A DNA stretch of 24,260 bases from a phage. The translations under genes were made by a program, and so were the position numbers. Below the pieces are notes generated by a model. The model made no database searches, had not been told where the DNA came from, and was given only the letters and a program-made list of their open reading frames with translations. Below are positions 3,683 to 20,407 of the stretch, piece after piece; position 1 is the first letter of the stretch, and the number at the start of each line of letters is the position of its first letter. The stretch is taken from assembly GCA_018175035.1 (NCBI GenBank), contig GCA_018175035.1_4099.4, one strand, 5' to 3'.

Positions 3683-3701
3683 ATTATATCAGTACTGAAA
3701 A

Positions 3702-4455: not shown

Positions 4456-4493
<38 letters not shown>

Positions 4494-4524: not shown

Positions 4525-4550
4525 AATATCCTCAGTACTGAATTATTTAG

Positions 4551-4554: not shown

Positions 4555-4964
<410 letters not shown>

Positions 4965-13456: not shown

Positions 13457-13836
13457 AGTTTTTTCCAGTCCAATGAATCGAAATCGATTTGCTCAGGATT
13501 ATCAACAGCGACAACTCGTGCATTATGAAGAGTTTCAAAGTAGCCGTTCCACGGTGTTCGTAATGGAACTGTCACATCGCCAACTTTAACCAAGAATGAA
13601 TATTCTGGTGATATTGGGTCAAACCACTCTTTTTGTTTAGCATTTTCAACGATAGTTTCGTGTTCTTTAGTATAGCAATTATCTTGCTTCATATAAAACA
13701 CCCAATGCTCTTTTAGGCACTGTAAAGCAGCAACTGCTTCCTCTTTAGAAGACCATTGAATATCAATTGTATTAAGAACGTCATAACAATTTTCAGTGTC
13801 CCCTGTAGTGTAATGTACTTCAATGCTGTATTTCAT
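13453..13836 (-). CDS. hypothetical protein
   Basis: Track ORF, ATG start, ATGA coupling. Confidence 0.7.
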   Translation of the reverse strand: MKYSIEVHYTTGDTENCYDVLNTIDIQWSSKEEAVAALQCLKEHWVFYMKQDNCYTKEHETIVENAKQKEWFDPISPEYSFLVKVGDVTVPLRTPWNGYFETLHNARVVAVDNPEQIDFDSLDWKKL

Positions 13837-14291
13837 TAATCATCGCCTTTTAGTAATTTACAAATTTCAATCATATGATAATAACATGTATTCCAAAATT
13901 GTCCATTAGTACTTCCAACATCATGCACAGTACTTTGTTGGAAAACATATTCATCGTTGAACATCATTTTAATATCATCAATGTAAAATTCTGGTTTTGA
14001 ATCATTATTGTATTCAATACTCGTTTCACCATCTGGATCAAGTGAAATTGATGATATGTCGTGAATTCCTCTCGGATTTGTTGGATAAATTCTCAACGTA
14101 AGAGGATAGAAGTCTGGATCGGTTTCATAAGTATATTCGATTATGTAATAACCATCACCAGTAATTGATTGATATTTAAATGTAGTTTCAATTGAATTTG
14201 AGATGTTAAATCCCAGTTTCTTTATCTCATGTAGATGTGATAATATTTTATGTAAAGATCCTAAAACATGAATCAAATTATCAATTTTCAT
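13836..14291 (-). CDS. hypothetical protein, FQxST-motif family
   Basis: Track ORF, ATG start; NDEYVFQQSTVHDV. Confidence 0.7.
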   Translation of the reverse strand: MKIDNLIHVLGSLHKILSHLHEIKKLGFNISNSIETTFKYQSITGDGYYIIEYTYETDPDFYPLTLRIYPTNPRGIHDISSISLDPDGETSIEYNNDSKPEFYIDDIKMMFNDEYVFQQSTVHDVGSTNGQFWNTCYYHMIEICKLLKGDD

Positions 14292-14803
14292 TTACGATCC
14301 TTTGAAAAGTTCAGTTTAAAAGTTTTACCAAATTCCATTGTAGCTTTACCCAGATTGTTAATATTTTCTTTCAACATTTCTTGCATCTTCCTAATACTTT
14401 CAATCCAGGCTTCTTCTTCGATACGAAGAATTGGTCGCAATCGTTCCTGAATATCGTTAAAACGTGTATTGAGTTCAACCAATGATTCATATGTGAAATC
14501 TTTCATATCGATAATAGTACTTCTTTGAAAGAATTCTTCTTCAGACAAATTACTTAAAATGATTTTATCACGACCAATAGATAATGTCAATTCATCATCT
14601 TTATTTTTTTTAATTACAATACTGATAGGTGTTTTTAATGTAATGCAAATATCATGATTATTAAATGTTTCAGTTTGGTTTGACATTCTGAATTGAAGTT
14701 TCCCAGATAAAGCATGTACTGGTGATGGTTGCTTTTTACCAGTAATAACATCTTCCCATGAATCGAGAATATTATTAATAATTTTAACATAAGGAATTGG
14801 CAT
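14288..14803 (-). CDS. hypothetical protein, FQxST-motif family (start moved from TTG to ATG)
   Basis: Track ORF starts at TTG at 14830; the ATG at 14803 is preceded by AGGTG plus 5 nt; SEEEFFQRSTIIDM. Confidence 0.7.
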   Translation of the reverse strand: MPIPYVKIINNILDSWEDVITGKKQPSPVHALSGKLQFRMSNQTETFNNHDICITLKTPISIVIKKNKDDELTLSIGRDKIILSNLSEEEFFQRSTIIDMKDFTYESLVELNTRFNDIQERLRPILRIEEEAWIESIRKMQEMLKENINNLGKATMEFGKTFKLNFSKDRK

Positions 14804-14816
14804 ATATGCACCTATG

Positions 14817-14839
14817 AAAAATCCACGCAATGCGTGGAT
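14817..14839 (-). terminator. rho-independent terminator-like hairpin (GC-rich 8-bp stem plus U4)
   Basis: Minus strand: AUCCACGCA-U-UGCGUGGAU then UUUU; between the stop of 14846..15376 and the SD of 14288..14803. Confidence 0.5.
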
Positions 14840-14845
14840 TTGTAA

Positions 14846-15376
14846 TTATTCAAGTATAGTAATTTCAATTAAACGAATTTCGATAAACTCGTTTTCAGTT
14901 TCCCATGACGTGCCAAATTTCTTTTCAAGTTCAGATTTCACATCACTTTTAAATTTTCCCATAGTATTAGGAATAATTTGTTTGGTTAATTTGTCATAAC
15001 CACAATAAAACATAGGTTTCTCCCTTCGAGATATTAGCTGAACAAAATCTTTTGGATATGCAGGTATGTTATGCATCACTTCATGAATACACTCAGTACT
15101 TGAATCTTGTACTTTGTACATTACATTAAGTTTACCTCTGAAATTTGCGGTCATATCAACAATAGTTCCTTTACCCGATTTAAGTAAAGTTCCATTCTTT
15201 GAATGAGAGCAATAAAATACCTCATCACCAATATTAGGATAATACAAATTAAATTCTAATTCAGATTTTACAGCCAGCCGTTTGAAACTTTCTGTACGTT
15301 TTATATAAGTTTGGTGTTTGTTTATGTTCAAAAGAATATATCTCGTAGTAAGTGTGATATAACTGGCATAGTCCAT
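14846..15376 (-). CDS. hypothetical protein (start overlaps the methyltransferase 3' end by 49 nt)
   Basis: Track ORF with ATG start; no alternative internal ATG nearby. Confidence 0.55.
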   Translation of the reverse strand: MDYASYITLTTRYILLNINKHQTYIKRTESFKRLAVKSELEFNLYYPNIGDEVFYCSHSKNGTLLKSGKGTIVDMTANFRGKLNVMYKVQDSSTECIHEVMHNIPAYPKDFVQLISRREKPMFYCGYDKLTKQIIPNTMGKFKSDVKSELEKKFGTSWETENEFIEIRLIEITILE

Positions 15377-17217
15377 CCATTCCCAAGCATTTTGTATGCT
15401 TGTGTTGAACTACTAACTTTGAAGTAGTTTACATCAATTCCTTGCAACATGCAACACTCTTGTACTGTTAAATGACGATAGTCCACATTTCGCTTACCAT
15501 GTTCAATAAGGAAATCCCTATCGATATCAGGTTCTTTGAAAACAATTTGTCTTCTTGATTTATTAAAGTACTGGTTACAATCACCACCCTTAAAATAGTT
15601 AGCATCTATACAGTACGAAGCGGTTCTGTCAGTGTACCAACCATCTTCAATAATATCTTGAAGTTTAGGTGCATTTGATAATGCAGGTGGTATAAAAAGT
15701 TTATCAGTACTGTACCAGTAATATCTCTGCCTGAAGTGAGGCGTATAATGCTGGGAATTTATCAGTACTGGTGTCATCTCAAGAACACTATTAATGTATT
15801 GCTTGAAATCTTCTTTCATCTTAACATTCTCAAAGAGAACTTTCAAGTTAGGATTTAAACTTTTTATGTGTTGGTAGATATCAACCATCGTGTGAAACAA
15901 CATTCCACGTGGGTCATTTATACCACCCTGTTTACCAGCAACTGACCATGCTTGACAATTGTGAACAACTATATTATTTGCAGTGTACGTGTTATCAACA
16001 GCAACTTCAAAATTATATACAGTTTTCCATTCTCCAGTATGAGTGCTAGTTTTTACACCTTTAACCCACGAATAATTTTTGTCATAAAAAGCTTCCTCTT
16101 TTTTCGGTTGGTCTTTTTTATATGACAAAACATAATAAGGTTTTTGGTTAACAACTCGATTTTCAATAACTTTGGTATTCTCTGGTTGAGTATAGCTTAT
16201 ATTGGAATGCCTTCCATATACGTTCATTATCAATTGTTGAATACCCAATACACAGTTTATTGATGTTGTAGTGAATTTATAACATCCACTATCAATATGT
16301 CCATCAGCGTCAAAGTAACCATCAAGAAATGCTTTTTGGTTTTTTATGCATTCCGTGAATAGTTCTGGGTGTACTTGTTTGTTAGAAGCACCCTTTCCCA
16401 TTTGTTCACAAAATTCAACCAGATCTTTTGAACATATATAAAATTTATATGAAGTTCTTTCTTTAACATAATTATATTTCATATTCATACCATCAAAACA
16501 TGAAACTAATTCATTAAATTCGTCATGTGCACAACAGATGAAAACTCTATATTGGTAACTATTGGTTCTATTGTTACGTTTTACTTTATATGTCCATCCA
16601 TCACCCATAAAGCGACCCATAAAATACCAGAATTTTTCATCTTTCGTTGATTTGTTAGATTCAACTGATTTAACATTACACAGAAAATGGTCATATGTCA
16701 AATCATGTGCCTCTACCCATTCTGGTTCAGAAAAATGACGTTCATATTGTCTAATGTTGTTATTCCACATAGACGTCATTTTTCTTGAATAAAAGGGATG
16801 ATTATCGGTACATTCAATTGGAAGGTGACCTTGACCTGTAATAATACGAGTGGGAGCATTTTTAACACCAGTACTCAAAACTGGATGATATTTACCAGTA
16901 TGTGTCAGTACCATGTCACCAACTTGAATGTCTTTTATATCTTTATGACCTTTGTCTGTCATAATCATGGTTCCTGCTGGGAAGCATGGAAATCCACCCA
17001 TTAATAAATCTATTTTATCCCACTCAATATCCCATTCTCTCCATTTAGTTACATCACCCAATTGGGTGATATCAGGAAAGTTAGCTTGAGATTCAGCTAT
17101 TGCGTACTTGTCAATTTCGGATGAATAATATTTTTCAACAGGGATACCAGCATCTTTTAATGCCATGTATCCAACACTCATCCCATTAAAAAGAGATAGT
17201 ACTCGGATAGGTTTCAT
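15328..17217 (-). CDS. DNA (cytosine-5)-methyltransferase precursor interrupted by an intein
   Basis: Motif I LSLFNGMSVG; GGFP (res 74-77) then, after 343 aa, CQAWSVAGKQGG, which rejoins to the PCQ motif; motif VI LFENV; C-terminal LTVQECCMLQG and LGNGWTMPVISHL. ATG start, SD AAAGGA. Predicted spliced extein about 286 aa. Confidence 0.85.
   Translation of the reverse strand: MKPIRVLSLFNGMSVGYMALKDAGIPVEKYYSSEIDKYAIAESQANFPDITQLGDVTKWREWDIEWDKIDLLMGGFPCFPAGTMIMTDKGHKDIKDIQVGDMVLTHTGKYHPVLSTGVKNAPTRIITGQGHLPIECTDNHPFYSRKMTSMWNNNIRQYERHFSEPEWVEAHDLTYDHFLCNVKSVESNKSTKDEKFWYFMGRFMGDGWTYKVKRNNRTNSYQYRVFICCAHDEFNELVSCFDGMNMKYNYVKERTSYKFYICSKDLVEFCEQMGKGASNKQVHPELFTECIKNQKAFLDGYFDADGHIDSGCYKFTTTSINCVLGIQQLIMNVYGRHSNISYTQPENTKVIENRVVNQKPYYVLSYKKDQPKKEEAFYDKNYSWVKGVKTSTHTGEWKTVYNFEVAVDNTYTANNIVVHNCQAWSVAGKQGGINDPRGMLFHTMVDIYQHIKSLNPNLKVLFENVKMKEDFKQYINSVLEMTPVLINSQHYTPHFRQRYYWYSTDKLFIPPALSNAPKLQDIIEDGWYTDRTASYCIDANYFKGGDCNQYFNKSRRQIVFKEPDIDRDFLIEHGKRNVDYRHLTVQECCMLQGIDVNYFKVSSSTQAYKMLGNGWTMPVISHLLRDIFF
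15958..16986 (-). mobile_element. Intein (343 aa) with LAGLIDADG homing-endonuclease motifs, inserted before the catalytic Cys of the PCQ motif
   Basis: N-terminal block CFPAGTMIMTDKG...; C-terminal ...NNIVVHN followed by +1 Cys; internal FMGRFMGDGW and KAFLDGYFDADGHI. Codon boundaries checked against the nucleotide sequence (TGC at 16986-16984, AAT at 15960-15958, TGT +1 at 15957-15955). Confidence 0.8.
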
Positions 17218-17245
17218 ATAAAATCCTTTTTATATTGTTAAGGTA

Positions 17246-17263
17246 CTATAATATATTATAGCA
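17246..17263 (-). promoter_or_regulatory. Extended -10 promoter element (TGC-TATAAT) inside a 16-bp perfect palindrome CTATAATATATTATAG, upstream of the methyltransferase
   Basis: Palindrome read directly at 17246-17261; minus strand reads TGCTATAAT; the -35 is weak; about 30 nt upstream of the methyltransferase ATG. Confidence 0.45.
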
Positions 17264-17269
17264 TCTTAT

Positions 17270-17521
17270 TTAGAAATCTTCCAAACTTTTTTCATCACAC
17301 CATCGTGATGTACAGATGATTGCAGATGCCAGAATTGAAGCACTTGCACGTCCTCCACCAAGTAAGTACTGGCTAATTACACCAATCATATTGAACACTT
17401 TATCATACTCGGTTAGTTGTTCAAAACCTTTCTTCCAATGCTGATATTCTTCTTCTGTGACATTAAACTCACCATCAAGTTCCTTTAAAATCTTTTTAAG
17501 CACAGCACTATGTTCACTCAT
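17270..17521 (-). CDS. hypothetical protein (start uncertain; the track start at 17560 is GTG)
   Basis: Several in-frame ATGs; the ATG at 17521 (MSEHSAVLKK...) is preceded by GGAG plus 6 nt; an acidic 25-codon upstream ORF (17514..17591, MSEKPKEPLDRDDDFYDERYGDDDE) with a strong SD overlaps it. Confidence 0.5.
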   Translation of the reverse strand: MSEHSAVLKKILKELDGEFNVTEEEYQHWKKGFEQLTEYDKVFNMIGVISQYLLGGGRASASILASAIICTSRWCDEKSLEDF

Positions 17522-17599
17522 CATCATCTCCATATCGTTCGTCATAAAAATCATCATCACGATCTAATGGTTCTTTTGGCTTTTCAGACATATATTTCC

Positions 17600-17874: not shown

Positions 17875-18315
17875 TTAATTGAACTCTACTTCTGGATAAT
17901 GATTATAGAACATCTCACGAACTGCGTCAAGATGTTCTTGAAATTGTTTTATATCTTCTAATGATGGTGCATCAATAACAGTACTAAGTTGAAACAACGA
18001 TTCTTCTGTGTTATATAGTGACATATCAAATGAGTTATTGTTGTCATCAGTTATGATATTATCACAAATTTCGTAAGTGTCAATACAAACATCATCAAGT
18101 GTTGTATTATCATATACAGTGTATACGAATACAAAAATAAAAGAAGAATGTTCTTTACCATAACGCGGTGGGTCATATGTCACATAGCATTTGTGGTCAA
18201 ATGTATCGAGTTCCATAGACACCACCCCAGCTTCACGATATTCATTAGTTTCACTGGTAAGATCCGGTATTGATGTTATCGAAAGTAAGTGGAGAAATTT
18301 ACTTGGATTTAGCAT
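17875..18315 (-). CDS. hypothetical protein, FQxST-motif family
   Basis: Track ORF, ATG start; TEESLFQLSTVIDA. Confidence 0.7.
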   Translation of the reverse strand: MLNPSKFLHLLSITSIPDLTSETNEYREAGVVSMELDTFDHKCYVTYDPPRYGKEHSSFIFVFVYTVYDNTTLDDVCIDTYEICDNIITDDNNNSFDMSLYNTEESLFQLSTVIDAPSLEDIKQFQEHLDAVREMFYNHYPEVEFN

Positions 18316-18764
18316 TTCACCACCATTGGATTTTGCGACTGTATATTAAAAAGGGATAATACAAAAGTACTCAATTTTTCGAAACAATCTACTAATACAT
18401 TTAACTCATCATAACTAACACCAATTTCACGAATAAGCGATTGTTGAAAGAATCCTTCTTCGGTTAACGTTAAACTACTAACCTCAGTTATGTTATAATA
18501 ACTGTGGGATGTTGTGGTTGATATTAGTTGTATTGCAATCGTATCTGATGTTGTGTTGTACAGATATAAATATTTTGTTTTTCTTTCCAATGGATCTATA
18601 CATGAAAGATCGATCATGTCATAGGTTTTTCCAATAAAAATATTACAATCATCTGACAATTCACAACAAATGCGTATATGTTCTTTCGGGTCATGAACAC
18701 GTTGTGTGTCAAATTCACATGACATTGCAATTTCAAAATGATTTTTTATTTCGTCAACATTCAT
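18309..18764 (-). CDS. hypothetical protein, FQxST-motif family (start moved from GTG to ATG)
   Basis: Track ORF starts at GTG at 18770; ATG at 18764 with GGTGGGTG upstream; TEEGFFQQSLIREI. Confidence 0.7.
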   Translation of the reverse strand: MNVDEIKNHFEIAMSCEFDTQRVHDPKEHIRICCELSDDCNIFIGKTYDMIDLSCIDPLERKTKYLYLYNTTSDTIAIQLISTTTSHSYYNITEVSSLTLTEEGFFQQSLIREIGVSYDELNVLVDCFEKLSTFVLSLFNIQSQNPMVVKC

Positions 18765-19138
18765 CTGCACCCACCATTAATTCTTATATTTGTATAGTTT
18801 AATGCTTTTTTAATAATACCAATTTCTGTAATTCCTATTACATTTTTCTCAATCAATGACAATTGGAATAGTTCCTCTTCGGAAATATCAATACTGTGGA
18901 TTCTTGTACAATAATCGTTGAAGTCATATACATATCGTATTGTATAGTCGTTTATAGAAACTGATACAATTGCAATCCCATCATGGATGTAAGTTAGTTC
19001 ATTTGAGTATCTATTAAAAATTAACCTATCTGGTGAACCTATTGGTAGTTGAAATGTATTTCTAGTATCTTGAACAATAACAAAATCATCATCTATATTT
19101 CTACTCAGAACACCCAAAATATCATATATAGTAGTCAT
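18761..19138 (-). CDS. hypothetical protein, FQxST-motif family
   Basis: Track ORF, ATG start; SEEELFQLSLIEKN. Confidence 0.7.
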   Translation of the reverse strand: MTTIYDILGVLSRNIDDDFVIVQDTRNTFQLPIGSPDRLIFNRYSNELTYIHDGIAIVSVSINDYTIRYVYDFNDYCTRIHSIDISEEELFQLSLIEKNVIGITEIGIIKKALNYTNIRINGGCR

Positions 19139-19139
19139 G

Positions 19140-19544
19140 TTATTCTTTACCTTCAGCAGTTCTGATAATTTTCATAACTTCTCTGGATAGTGCGTATATT
19201 TTTTTATAGTACTCAAATGTAACTGAACCAAAATCATTAATAGTACTAGCCATGAAGAACGATTCTTCTGTATATAGTTCATTTGACAAAGCAACCAGTT
19301 CTTGGTGAAATTTTGCGTCCTTCCAATAACGAAATTCAAAAACAAATTGTCCGTCATGACCGACTCTACAACATTCAGAACGATCACTGTCTACACAGCT
19401 AAACACAATATCCCTTTCAGAGTCGTACCAGATATTTCCAATATTTGTTTCAATAACAGCATAATCAATTTTTTTAGAATTTGGAATTAAACCTTTTTTC
19501 ACCAGCACTAAACTGGTATTATCAATATCTAGTAAACTTACCAT
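19140..19544 (-). CDS. hypothetical protein, FQxST-motif family
   Basis: Track ORF, ATG start, SD GGGGAA; TEESFFMASTINDF. Confidence 0.7.
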   Translation of the reverse strand: MVSLLDIDNTSLVLVKKGLIPNSKKIDYAVIETNIGNIWYDSERDIVFSCVDSDRSECCRVGHDGQFVFEFRYWKDAKFHQELVALSNELYTEESFFMASTINDFGSVTFEYYKKIYALSREVMKIIRTAEGKE

Positions 19545-19545
19545 A

Positions 19546-19956
19546 TCAATTCCCCATTACTAAAGTGTTTTTAATCTCCAACAATTCACTATACATATTC
19601 TTCAATTGTAATATATCTTCAAAAGTAATACCACCAAGATCATCAACTAATGAACGTTGGAATAAAGATTCACTTGTTTGTAATGTATCTAAATCGGTGA
19701 TTTTTAATAAAGAACTTGGATTAAGTGTTTCGACTAGTAGTATGTTTTTGTATGGTACATATGTGATCTTGATGTTCTTTTTATAATTAATCTTATAAAA
19801 TCGCATAATTGACGATTCATCACTTAGTTGGATAATTGGGTCGTCTTGATCATTAGACCACCATACAGTACTAGTCATATGATTGACGTGGTGGTTCAAT
19901 TCTGATATGTCCAAATCTAAAAAATATTTTAGTTCATTGTGTAAATCTAAACTCAT
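19546..19956 (-). CDS. hypothetical protein, FQxST-motif family
   Basis: Track ORF, ATG start, SD GAGGA plus 7 nt; SESLFQRSLVDDL. Confidence 0.7.
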   Translation of the reverse strand: MSLDLHNELKYFLDLDISELNHHVNHMTSTVWWSNDQDDPIIQLSDESSIMRFYKINYKKNIKITYVPYKNILLVETLNPSSLLKITDLDTLQTSESLFQRSLVDDLGGITFEDILQLKNMYSELLEIKNTLVMGN

Positions 19957-19986
19957 AAATTTATCCTCAATGCAGCATCATCATGT

Positions 19987-20015
19987 ATTGTAGGATAAAC
20001 CCACAATAATGTCAA
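19987..20015 (-). promoter_or_regulatory. sigma70-like promoter TTGACA-N17-TACAAT
   Basis: Minus strand: TTGACA TTATTGTGGGTTTATCC TACAAT; the TGA within TTGACA is the stop codon of gene 20012..20407; upstream of gene 19546..19956. Confidence 0.55.
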
Positions 20016-20407
20016 GATGTAAAATAATTATACCAGTAATATAGTTCTTTTAATTCTTCAGTACTGAACAATACTTCTTCTATTGTAGATTGTTGAAAGT
20101 GATATTCATCATTTAGATACATAGAAATATTACTATATACTTTCCTATTGTATTGACATAAAAAAGAAGTTTTTTGATTAATGTATTCCGTAAATGTTAA
20201 TTTATCTAACTCAATATCGAATGATAATTTAATAATATGACTATTATCATTTACATACATTAGTTTCTTTGAAAAATGATCAATTGTAATATATTCTTTA
20301 TGAGAGAACTGAAATATATTATTAAATTTATTACCATTTGTGCTTCTAAATTTTTCAAGGTAATAAGAAAGTGGTTTAATTATTGAAGTTCCAATATTGT
20401 TCTTCAT
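20012..20407 (-). CDS. hypothetical protein, FQxST-motif family
   Basis: Track ORF, ATG start, SD GAGGA; NDEYHFQQSTIEEV. Confidence 0.7.
   Translation of the reverse strand: MKNNIGTSIIKPLSYYLEKFRSTNGNKFNNIFQFSHKEYITIDHFSKKLMYVNDNSHIIKLSFDIELDKLTFTEYINQKTSFLCQYNRKVYSNISMYLNDEYHFQQSTIEEVLFSTEELKELYYWYNYFTS

Follow-up and report, generated by a model that had tools for sequence, protein, structure and literature searches.

The window analysed here, a stretch of 24,260 nucleotides, derives from an Asteriusvirus jumbo coliphage of the 121Q/PBECO4 group and is 95% identical to 121Q, PBECO4 and G17. Its genes are carried by the minus strand and are all co-directional. One of them (15328–17217, minus strand) encodes a C5 cytosine DNA methyltransferase of 629 amino acids (Pfam DNA_methylase), for which the DNMT3 catalytic domains, M.HaeIII and M.HhaI are the nearest solved structures. 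The coding sequence is interrupted by an intein of 343 amino acids with a LAGLIDADG endonuclease (DNA positions 15958–16986; Pfam Hint_2, LAGLIDADG_3 and Intein_splicing) that is inserted directly before the catalytic Cys of motif IV (GGFP|C...VVHN|CQAWS); the 121Q orthologue, of 286 amino acids, is intein-less. Position 1 of the DNA_methylase profile corresponds to residue 4 and motif I (LFNGMSVG) follows from residue 9, and the Pfam profile alignment reveals no N-terminal DNA-binding domain. The adjacent upstream gene is an ORF of 96 amino acids (17270–17560, minus strand), a homologue of 121Q gp90 that has no Pfam match and belongs to PHROG 27090, a family without functional annotation. Its structural model is all-alpha (pLDDT 76.6), and comparison with the PDB yielded nothing at E ≤ 0.001. 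No Pfam match was obtained for the two ORFs upstream or for one ORF downstream, all of which fall into PHROGs without functional annotation. A nuclease domain was found in none of the 13 neighbouring ORFs scanned with Pfam, which diverse restriction enzymes can escape. Judging from its gene neighbourhood, the methyltransferase is a stand-alone enzyme without a partner restriction enzyme.

The gap between the 96-aa gene and the methyltransferase gene comprises 52 nt and holds the palindrome. Read on the minus strand, the order is TAA (17272–17270, the stop codon of the 96-aa ORF), ATAAGA, TGC, TATAAT (17260–17255), AT, ATTATAG, TACCTTAACAATATAAAAAGGATTTTAT and the ATG of the methyltransferase gene (17217–17215). 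The original prediction had described a perfectly symmetric element at this site, and the symmetry is indeed exact over 16 bp: CTATAATATATTATAG (17246–17261), which reads the same on either strand, has a left arm formed by C and the -10 hexamer, AT at its centre and ATTATAG as its right arm (17246–17252, minus strand), and it stops at the unpaired flanking bases A at 17245 and C at 17262. That the palindrome contains the extended -10 holds for C+TATAAT, which lies inside, but not for the TG at 17263–17262, which lies just outside. The predicted distance of about 30 nt from the start codon agrees with a -10 that ends 37 nt, and a palindrome that ends 28 nt, before the ATG. The right arm covers the discriminator and the region where transcription is predicted to start; a -10-like TATAGT and a GTAC site (17243–17246) overlap with it. 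Each strand of the palindrome has a single cytosine (contexts GCT and GTAC|T), and GGCC, CCGG, GCGC and CCWGG are absent.

The left arm belongs to a predicted promoter whose elements can be followed on the minus strand from the upstream gene to the start codon. An A-tract, AAAAAA (17287–17292), which resembles an UP element, and downstream of it a -35-like box, TTGGAAGA (17277–17284), identified by a promoter scan as well as by the family logo and member list, are both carried by the 3' end of the 96-aa ORF. The consensus promoter scan reads this box as TTGGAA (17284–17279) with an 18-nt spacer to the TG-preceded TATAAT; alternatively, it can be read as TGGAAGA, which matches the family sequence TGGGACA at five of seven positions and in register. 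The extended -10, TGCTATAAT (17255–17263), is apparent from the sequence and from the promoter scan, consists of TG and a perfect TATAAT, and is invariant in all seven aligned haplotypes of the palindrome cassette. The leader AACAATATAAAAAGGATTTTATATG is unchanged across seven aligned haplotypes, and a ribosome-binding site, AAGGA (17224–17228), is positioned 6 nt before the ATG. TGn-TATAAT with a -35-like box 16–18 nt away, on the correct strand and in the correct position, is the arrangement of a sigma-70 extended -10 promoter. From sigma-70 geometry, transcription would start at the A at 17249 or 17247, 6–8 nt after the -10.

This promoter is a member of a family that recurs in the phage genome. 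Aligned sites yield the consensus A-tract, tGGGACA, 16 nt, TGnTATAAT, and TGNTATAAT has 77 sense-strand occurrences where 25.6 are expected (about 3-fold), compared with 18 on the opposite strand (24.4 expected). Intergenic DNA, which makes up 9% of the genome, contains 39 of the 77 sense-strand sites (7.1 expected, 5-fold). The A content of the family is about 50% at -30 to -22 relative to the TG, the very position of the A-tract in front of the methyltransferase gene. The assignment of the site as the promoter of the methyltransferase gene is thus upheld, since its -10, its -35-like box and its A-tract are all in register with the family and TGCTATAAT does not vary. The family definition should be useful for the annotation of early transcription units in Asteriusvirus.

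Early promoters of T4 are of the sigma-70 extended -10 type with UP-like A-tracts. The methyltransferase promoter has in common with early promoters of large lytic phages the TG, the perfect TATAAT, a -35-like box at 17–18 nt, the A-tract and the AT-rich discriminator, and also its location between co-directional small early genes and its membership in a family repeated in the genome. It differs from early promoters with TTGACA in that the -35 of the family is tGGGACA, of which the methyltransferase member, TGGAAGA, is a weaker version. RpoD-like promoters with UP-like elements have been described for the related phage CBB, where they cluster in CBB_390-546, the presumed early region; the methyltransferase of CBB is CBB_399 (PMC5259590). 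In PA5oct, which is also related, TTGAC/TATAATA promoters are present and the host polymerase is used (PMC7318152).

We consider it probable that the site is an ordinary host-type early promoter of the methyltransferase gene and that the palindrome is incidental, its symmetry having no function of its own. An internal promoter of the sigma-70 type, built from the A-tract, TTGGAAGA and TGcTATAAT and located in the early-gene region, would be recognised by the host RNA polymerase; its use by host sigma-70 and its early timing are predicted. The methyltransferase would in this way obtain a transcript of its own, with a leader of about 30 nt and the AAGGA, in addition to read-through from upstream promoters, and this promoter of its own would let the enzyme, which presumably has a protective role, be made early. 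The palindrome would result from the AT-rich stretch past the -10 (ATATTATAG, discriminator and start site), which happens to be the reverse complement of C+TATAAT. Taken by itself the finding is of little weight, one more predicted host-type early promoter in a jumbo phage.

Chance is a sufficient source of such symmetry. The original prediction had allowed that a palindrome of this length can arise by chance in AT-rich DNA, and it was right to do so: dinucleotide-preserving shuffles of the window contained a mean of 0.84 perfect palindromes of at least 16 bp, 57% of the shuffles had at least one, and the window itself has three. In a close relative with a genome of 352 kb, 12 of 777 TATAAT hexamers (1.5%) have an inverted copy nearby (arms of at least 6 bp at a distance of 0–6 nt), and the same applies to two of 95 extended -10 sites, against about 1.5 predicted. 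The exact palindrome is present once in that genome, and only one other site comes within two mismatches. Given this base composition, a conspicuous AT-rich palindrome at a -10 box is to be expected by chance.

A comparison of haplotypes in related phages bears on the question of what is conserved. TTATAG is kept in five of eight haplotype classes (121Q, BF17, L124, Turkey5/JNE01/L118 and L122), and in these the spacer between the -10 and TTATAG varies both in sequence and in length (3, 4 or 5 nt). In L123, ph0011 and the A4-like phages, all of which keep the -10, TTATAG has been altered or is missing. The sequence of ph0011, ATATCAGAG, has two changes in the right arm; L123 has lost the outer palindrome pair and the GTAC; A4 and L116 retain the homologous promoter (TTGACG, 17 nt, TATAAT G), and the right arm is absent. 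The palindrome cassette as a whole is missing from EJP2, RaK2, GAP32, CBB, XbC2 and Hallingskeid. At the level of sequence, these natural variants indicate that the symmetry is dispensable, and ph0011, L123 and the A4-like phages represent natural 'symmetry mutants' with which the idea of an operator can be tested. Directly after the -10, five of the eight classes have G, which is also the commonest base at this position in the promoter family. A perfect palindrome thus requires a derived G-to-A substitution, and the exact symmetry appears to have arisen recently, as a derived state. Note that the comparison has little power either way because the haplotypes are closely related (80–97% identity) and show no compensatory changes. 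The retention of TTATAG at variable spacing fits a start-site constraint and an operator equally well. A scan of IMG/VR with the methyltransferase protein yielded nothing beyond RaK2 (63% identity) and distant relatives, and so added no gap haplotypes. A metagenome scan with the leader and start AAAGGATTTTATATGAAACC gave 11 loci, of which one was related, and this one was identical to the window.

The conserved part of the right arm might have a promoter function of its own that is independent of the symmetry, either as start site and initial transcript (T|A in TTATAG), as a second -10-like hexamer, TATAGT, or as an AGTAC element that forms part of the genome-wide (C)AGTACT(G) motif. Across the three spacing classes, the A of TTATAG falls within the normal start window, at 6, 7 or 8 nt past the -10. 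TATAGT, on the other hand, has neither a usable -35 nor a TG. For an AGTAC element one may cite that ph0011 keeps AGTAC despite its broken arm, that no other 6-mer in the genome is as over-represented as AGTACT and that GTAC is found nine times at 5–9 nt past extended -10 hexamers where 2.7 are expected; but this enrichment concerns one 5-nt bin of twelve, disappears in a broader promoter set and is unproven, and AGTAC is missing in L123. We regard a separate task of the right arm as rather unlikely.

The original prediction had tentatively proposed that the palindrome is an operator for autoregulation or temporal control. A dimeric phage or host protein bound to CTATAA-N(4-6)-TTATAG would block RNA polymerase at the -10 and in this way shut off or time the methyltransferase. 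The dyad does overlap the -10 and the start site, the classic place for steric repression, and its 6-bp arms persist in five classes despite the turnover of the centre, the pattern expected of an inverted repeat with a free centre. However, the left arm is the -10 itself and would be conserved anyway, the centres measure 4, 5 and 6 nt, a variation of 2 nt that a rigid dimer would tolerate poorly, and compensatory changes are lacking. The palindrome occurs at chance level and as a single copy in 352 kb, and in isolates that keep the -10 the symmetry is broken (ph0011 and L123) or absent altogether (A4/L116, promoter retained), and EJP2 and other genera do without the cassette. No candidate for the binding protein stands out either: the methyltransferase has no N-terminal DNA-binding domain, no C-box is present, and a helix-turn-helix signature was not detected in the neighbouring proteins. 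An operator function is accordingly not supported, and we judge it very unlikely. A slightly less probable form still is a single-copy operator, at which a phage or host protein that has so far escaped recognition binds CTATAA-N(4-6)-TTATAG and turns the early promoter off once the phage DNA is protected; such a protein may lack a recognisable DNA-binding domain. If true, the operator would serve to time a phage methyltransferase that stands alone, and would be unrelated to C-proteins or to regulators of the SsoII type.

Both of these known systems place a dyad at the promoter of a methyltransferase. In C-protein systems such as PvuII (PMC2175313) and Esp1396I (PMC3758141) a dyad likewise covers a promoter beside the methyltransferase gene, and the C-box consensus from PvuII is GACT-N3-AGTC (PMC2175313). 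No match to this consensus was found at or near the site, and the window contains one match with a single mismatch against 6.2 expected. The suggestion that the palindrome works as in the timing of restriction-modification systems could not be sustained, as neither a C-box nor a controller gene nor a restriction enzyme gene was found nearby; a divergent layout is also missing, and the methyltransferase is, unlike those of C-protein systems, a stand-alone phage gene in a long co-directional array. In methyltransferases of the SsoII/Ecl18kI type, an N-terminal helix-turn-helix region mediates repression of the enzyme's own promoter (PMC3978073, PMC2760811); in M.SsoII this region comprises about 71 residues before the catalytic domain (PMC3978073). 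The phage enzyme resembles them in that it, too, is a C5 methyltransferase whose promoter carries a palindrome. In contrast to SsoII, however, its catalytic domain begins at residue 4 without an extension of about 70 amino acids and leaves no room for an operator-binding part, and the neighbouring genes all point in one direction, with no gap between opposed R and M genes as in SsoII/Ecl18kI.

Two further candidates for a regulator were considered and rejected. The gp90 homologue has no family or fold match to suggest a controller, and its association with the palindrome does not extend to other phages, in which its homologues are located beside other genes and without a palindrome. As for a host factor, none of the consensus sequences for Fis, IHF, the ArgR box and the NrdR box fits the site in an informal and therefore weak comparison.

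A hairpin in read-through RNA or a DNA cruciform, acting as processing site, stability element or weak terminator before the methyltransferase gene, is hardly credible. The symmetric sequence is placed directly after the stop codon of the upstream gene and an A-U stem of 7–8 bp is predicted, but this stem would be weak (z = -1.37 against shuffles for an 84-nt RNA; -2.1 kcal/mol for the DNA hairpin), has no G-C pairs and no T-run, and is absent from the list of a terminator scan. Transcripts begun at the methyltransferase promoter would moreover lack the left arm, and the haplotypes show no compensatory changes. PeSL (promoter-early stem-loop) cassettes of T4-type phages, reported by Arbiol et al. 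in 2010, are short mobile elements that carry a promoter and are placed between small early genes. In PeSLs the promoter is paired with a strong G+C-rich terminator hairpin. The present locus resembles them in that related phages may carry, replace or lack a promoter-bearing module of about 35 nt between one and the same pair of genes, and differs from them in that its hairpin is weak and made of A-T only and the genome contains no second copy of the module. Still less plausible are overlapping face-to-face promoters, in which an antisense polymerase would interfere with transcription of the methyltransferase gene: TATAAT is indeed present on both strands (17255–17260 minus, 17247–17252 plus), but the plus-strand hexamer has no TG and faces CCTTTT or TCCTTT at the -35 position, the promoter scan offers only a weak alternative (TTTATA, 17 nt, TATATT), and antisense extended -10 motifs are not enriched (18 against 24.4 expected).

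A separate observation concerns the AGTACT motif. The literature searched contained nothing relevant on CAGTACTG or AGTACT in phages. (C)AGTACT(G) is over-represented 9- to 46-fold, genome-wide and throughout the phage clade, and this is a more intriguing lead than the palindrome.

The 3.5-kb stretch around the site is ~95% identical to Asteriusvirus jumbo coliphages (121Q, PBECO4, G17, slurp01, phAPEC6 and others), and all plausible genes of the window run along the minus strand. Among them is a tandem array (17875-20407 and 13836-14830, minus strand) of small paralogous ORFs, at least eight in number and 125-180 aa long, with the common C-terminal motif (E/D)E-x-(F/L)F-Q-x-S-(T/L)-(I/V), for which no significant Pfam match and one sub-threshold MutS_IV match were obtained. 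The gene downstream of the site (15328-17217, minus strand) encodes a C5 cytosine methyltransferase of 629 aa that harbours a 343-aa intein with a LAGLIDADG homing endonuclease (15958-16986, minus strand; both assigned by Pfam). The intein is inserted directly before the catalytic cysteine of motif IV (GGFP/C...VVHN/CQAWS), so that the active-site cysteine is also the +1 splice residue. It is carried by the phage of the window, TH47, JNE01, A4 and ph0011 and is absent from 121Q, G17, PBECO4 and most others; the intein-less form of most relatives comprises 286 aa, as does the orthologue 121Q gp91 (1764-2624 of the 121Q locus L001). Among solved structures, gp91 most resembles the catalytic domains of mammalian DNMT3A/B/C (E about 1e-23); M.HaeIII and M.HhaI rank behind them. 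GenBank labels of this small methyltransferase are inconsistent ('HaeIII', 'HpaII', 'Dcm', 'DNMT2').

The 52-nt gap between the upstream 96-aa ORF and the methyltransferase gene reads, on the coding strand, TAA(stop) ATAAGA TGC TATAAT AT ATTATAG TACCTTAACAATATAAAAAGGATTTTAT ATG. The sequence CTATAATATATTATAG (17246-17261) is perfectly symmetric and overlaps the -10 box as originally described, given that all features lie on the minus strand. A consensus promoter scan lists TTGGAA (17284-17279), an 18-nt spacer and TATAAT (17260-17255) with the TG of an extended -10. The reading as methyltransferase promoter is supported by an in-register match to a genome-wide family that is enriched on the sense strand and between genes. 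As comparison genome we used the close relative EC22.5-2, which is assembled whole (351,992 bp) and matches the window at 100% across the 101 nt surrounding the site. There, the sense strand contains 77 copies of TGNTATAAT where 25.6 are expected, compared with 18 on the opposite strand, for which the expectation is 24.4. Of the 77 sense-strand copies, 39 fall between genes against 7.1 expected, intergenic DNA making up 9.3% of the genome. Alignment of these sites relative to the TG reveals an A-rich tract (-30 to -22), tGGGACA (-20 to -14), TGnTATAAT and often a following G; the methyltransferase site fits this register with gAAAAAAgtt TGGAAGA ... TGCTATAAT. At least 18 clear members with this unusual -35 box are present among the extended -10 sites of EC22.5-2, for example at 121506, 143342, 154442, 173451, 250082, 250158, 317871 and 343446, and no description of the A-tract/tGGGACA/TGnTATAAT(G) family for Asteriusvirus was found in searchable papers. 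In the related phage CBB, RpoD-like promoters after UP-like elements have been reported to cluster in CBB_390-546, its presumed early region; the CBB methyltransferase is CBB_399 (PMC5259590). The more distant PA5oct has RNA-seq-supported promoters with TTGAC and TATAATA boxes and needs the host polymerase for transcription (PMC7318152). We infer that the methyltransferase promoter is an early promoter read by the host polymerase. The site is probably an ordinary promoter of a known type whose symmetry is incidental.

That such a palindrome can arise by chance was borne out by dinucleotide-preserving shuffles of the window: perfect palindromes of 16 bp or longer numbered 0.84 per shuffle on average and turned up in 57% of shuffles, and the real window has three. 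The EC22.5-2 genome has 16 such palindromes. An inverted copy with arms of 6 bp or more lies 0-6 nt away from 12 of its 777 TATAAT hexamers (1.5%) and from 2 of its 95 TGnTATAAT sites; one palindromic -10 per ~95 such promoters is therefore expected from composition alone. The longest perfect palindrome of the window, the 18-bp ATCACCCAATTGGGTGAT (17053-17070), lies within the N-terminal coding region of the methyltransferase (DITQLGD); it is present exactly in TH47, was not found in ten other relatives by a codon-degenerate pattern search, and has imperfect symmetry in EC22.5-2.

Natural variants of the site form a series. The 121Q type, CTATAAT-AT-ATTATAG counted from the C before the -10, is the perfect palindrome; it is represented by 22 GenBank records that do not differ from the window across 101 nt, and the same palindrome occurs in TH47, ELP-22 and the metagenome contig L110. 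The BF17 group (nine records, plus CMSTMSU) has a mismatch in the centre (CTATAAT-GT-ATTATAG), and arms of 6 bp enclose a centre of 4 nt in relative L124 (CTATAA-TGTT-TTATAG), of 5 nt in Turkey5, JNE01 and L118 (CTATAA-TGAAT-TTATAG) and of 6 nt in L122 (CTATAA-TGGATG-TTATAG). Relative L123 lacks the outer pair and the flanking GTAC (TATAATATATTATAA), the right arm of the isolated phage ph0011 has two changes (TATAATATATCAGAG), and A4 and L116 retain the homologous promoter (TTGACG, 17 nt, TATAAT-G) with the right arm absent, followed by a 290-bp insert. In EJP2 the upstream stop codon directly adjoins the ribosome-binding site, and RaK2, GAP32, CBB, XbC2 and Hallingskeid have short, promoter-less gaps. 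Across the seven aligned palindrome-bearing haplotypes, TGCTATAAT and the leader with the ribosome-binding site are invariant, while variable positions cluster in the palindrome centre, the right arm and a few bases beyond. Since a G follows the -10 in 5 of 8 haplotype classes and is also commonest there in the promoter family, the perfect palindrome seems to have arisen recently, through a G-to-A change in the 121Q lineage. The stretch TATCAGAG just 3' of the -10 is common to ph0011 (41-156 of its sequence) and the A4-like phages (800-840 of A4; L116), and both carry the intein allele, which hints that the ph0011 right arm changed by recombination with A4-like sequence and not by point mutation.

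A role of the right arm intrinsic to the promoter is unlikely, though it fares best among the alternatives to incidental symmetry. What favours some function of the right arm is that TTATAG is kept in five haplotype classes despite turnover of the centre in sequence and length. This argument is weakened in two ways. Conservation of the left arm has a cause of its own, and compensatory changes were not seen, so that evolution has put symmetry as such to no test. Moreover, the A of TTATAG falls 6, 7 or 8 nt past the -10 across the three spacing classes, which is where sigma-70 starts transcription; selection on the start site or on the first transcribed bases would account for the retention equally well. 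The adjacent AGTAC is retained even in ph0011. At 5-9 nt past extended -10 boxes, GTAC shows a mild enrichment (9 occurrences, 2.7 expected) that is not seen in a broader promoter set.

The original prediction that the palindrome is an operator, serving autoregulation or timing of the methyltransferase, found no support, and we regard a true operator as very improbable. The palindrome is single-copy in 352 kb, with one further site at up to two mismatches, and hence does not belong to a group of similar sites that could be controlled together; palindromic -10 boxes occur at the rate predicted by composition; and the -10 is retained where the right arm is changed or lost (L123, ph0011, A4/L116). 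A candidate binding protein was found neither in the methyltransferase nor in the neighbouring ORFs. A helix-turn-helix region of ~70 residues enables M.SsoII and M.Ecl18kI to act as repressors at their own promoters (PMC3978073, PMC2760811), whereas the phage enzyme starts at motif I, with position 1 of the Pfam profile at residue 4, and thus lacks such a region. A C-box of the form GACT-N3-AGTC is absent, and a regulator or nuclease domain was detected in none of the 13 neighbouring ORFs. The upstream 96-aa protein, confined to this phage group, has an all-alpha predicted fold (pLDDT 76.6) that matches no PDB structure at E<=0.001; elsewhere it is also encoded beside unrelated genes and without the palindrome. 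An RNA or DNA hairpin (z-score -1.37; DNA hairpin -2.1 kcal/mol; no T-run) and an antisense promoter (opposite-strand TATAAT without TG or -35 box) were rejected.

The most over-represented 6-mer of EC22.5-2 is AGTACT (919 against 119 expected from base composition; 9x the dinucleotide expectation) and the top 8-mer is CAGTACTG (204 against 3.4; 46x). The motif was followed in the whole window, the whole of EC22.5-2 (L015-L022) and the loci L005-L013. The window holds 61 AGTACT and 17 CAGTACTG, e.g. at 1252, 1373, 2584, 20059 and 22874. AGTACT is spread genome-wide and found in all three reading frames, with a 2x intergenic density; short samples of RaK2, GAP32, CBB, XbC2, EJP2 and an Erwinia relative show ~10x enrichment, which is absent from an unrelated contig. 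A literature search found no paper describing (C)AGTACT(G) over-representation; speculatively, it may be linked to the target of the phage methyltransferase (GTAC or AGTACT). Extended by symmetric flanks that vary, CAGTACTG accounts for many of the genome's longest perfect palindromes, and several copies (3690-3697, 4463-4470, 4533-4540 and 4942-4949, minus strand of the window) occupy the spacer of the repeated promoter TTGACTaaatagttCAGTACTGaTATAAT. In this cassette, TTGACTaaata(g/a)ttCAGTACTG(a)TATAAT-like, the AGTACT palindrome is the spacer and its last TG doubles as the TG of the extended -10. The copies at 4463, 4533 and 4942 lie within ~500 bp of each other, the 3690 copy has TGGACA replacing TTGACT, and another copy is found at 319010 in EC22.5-2.
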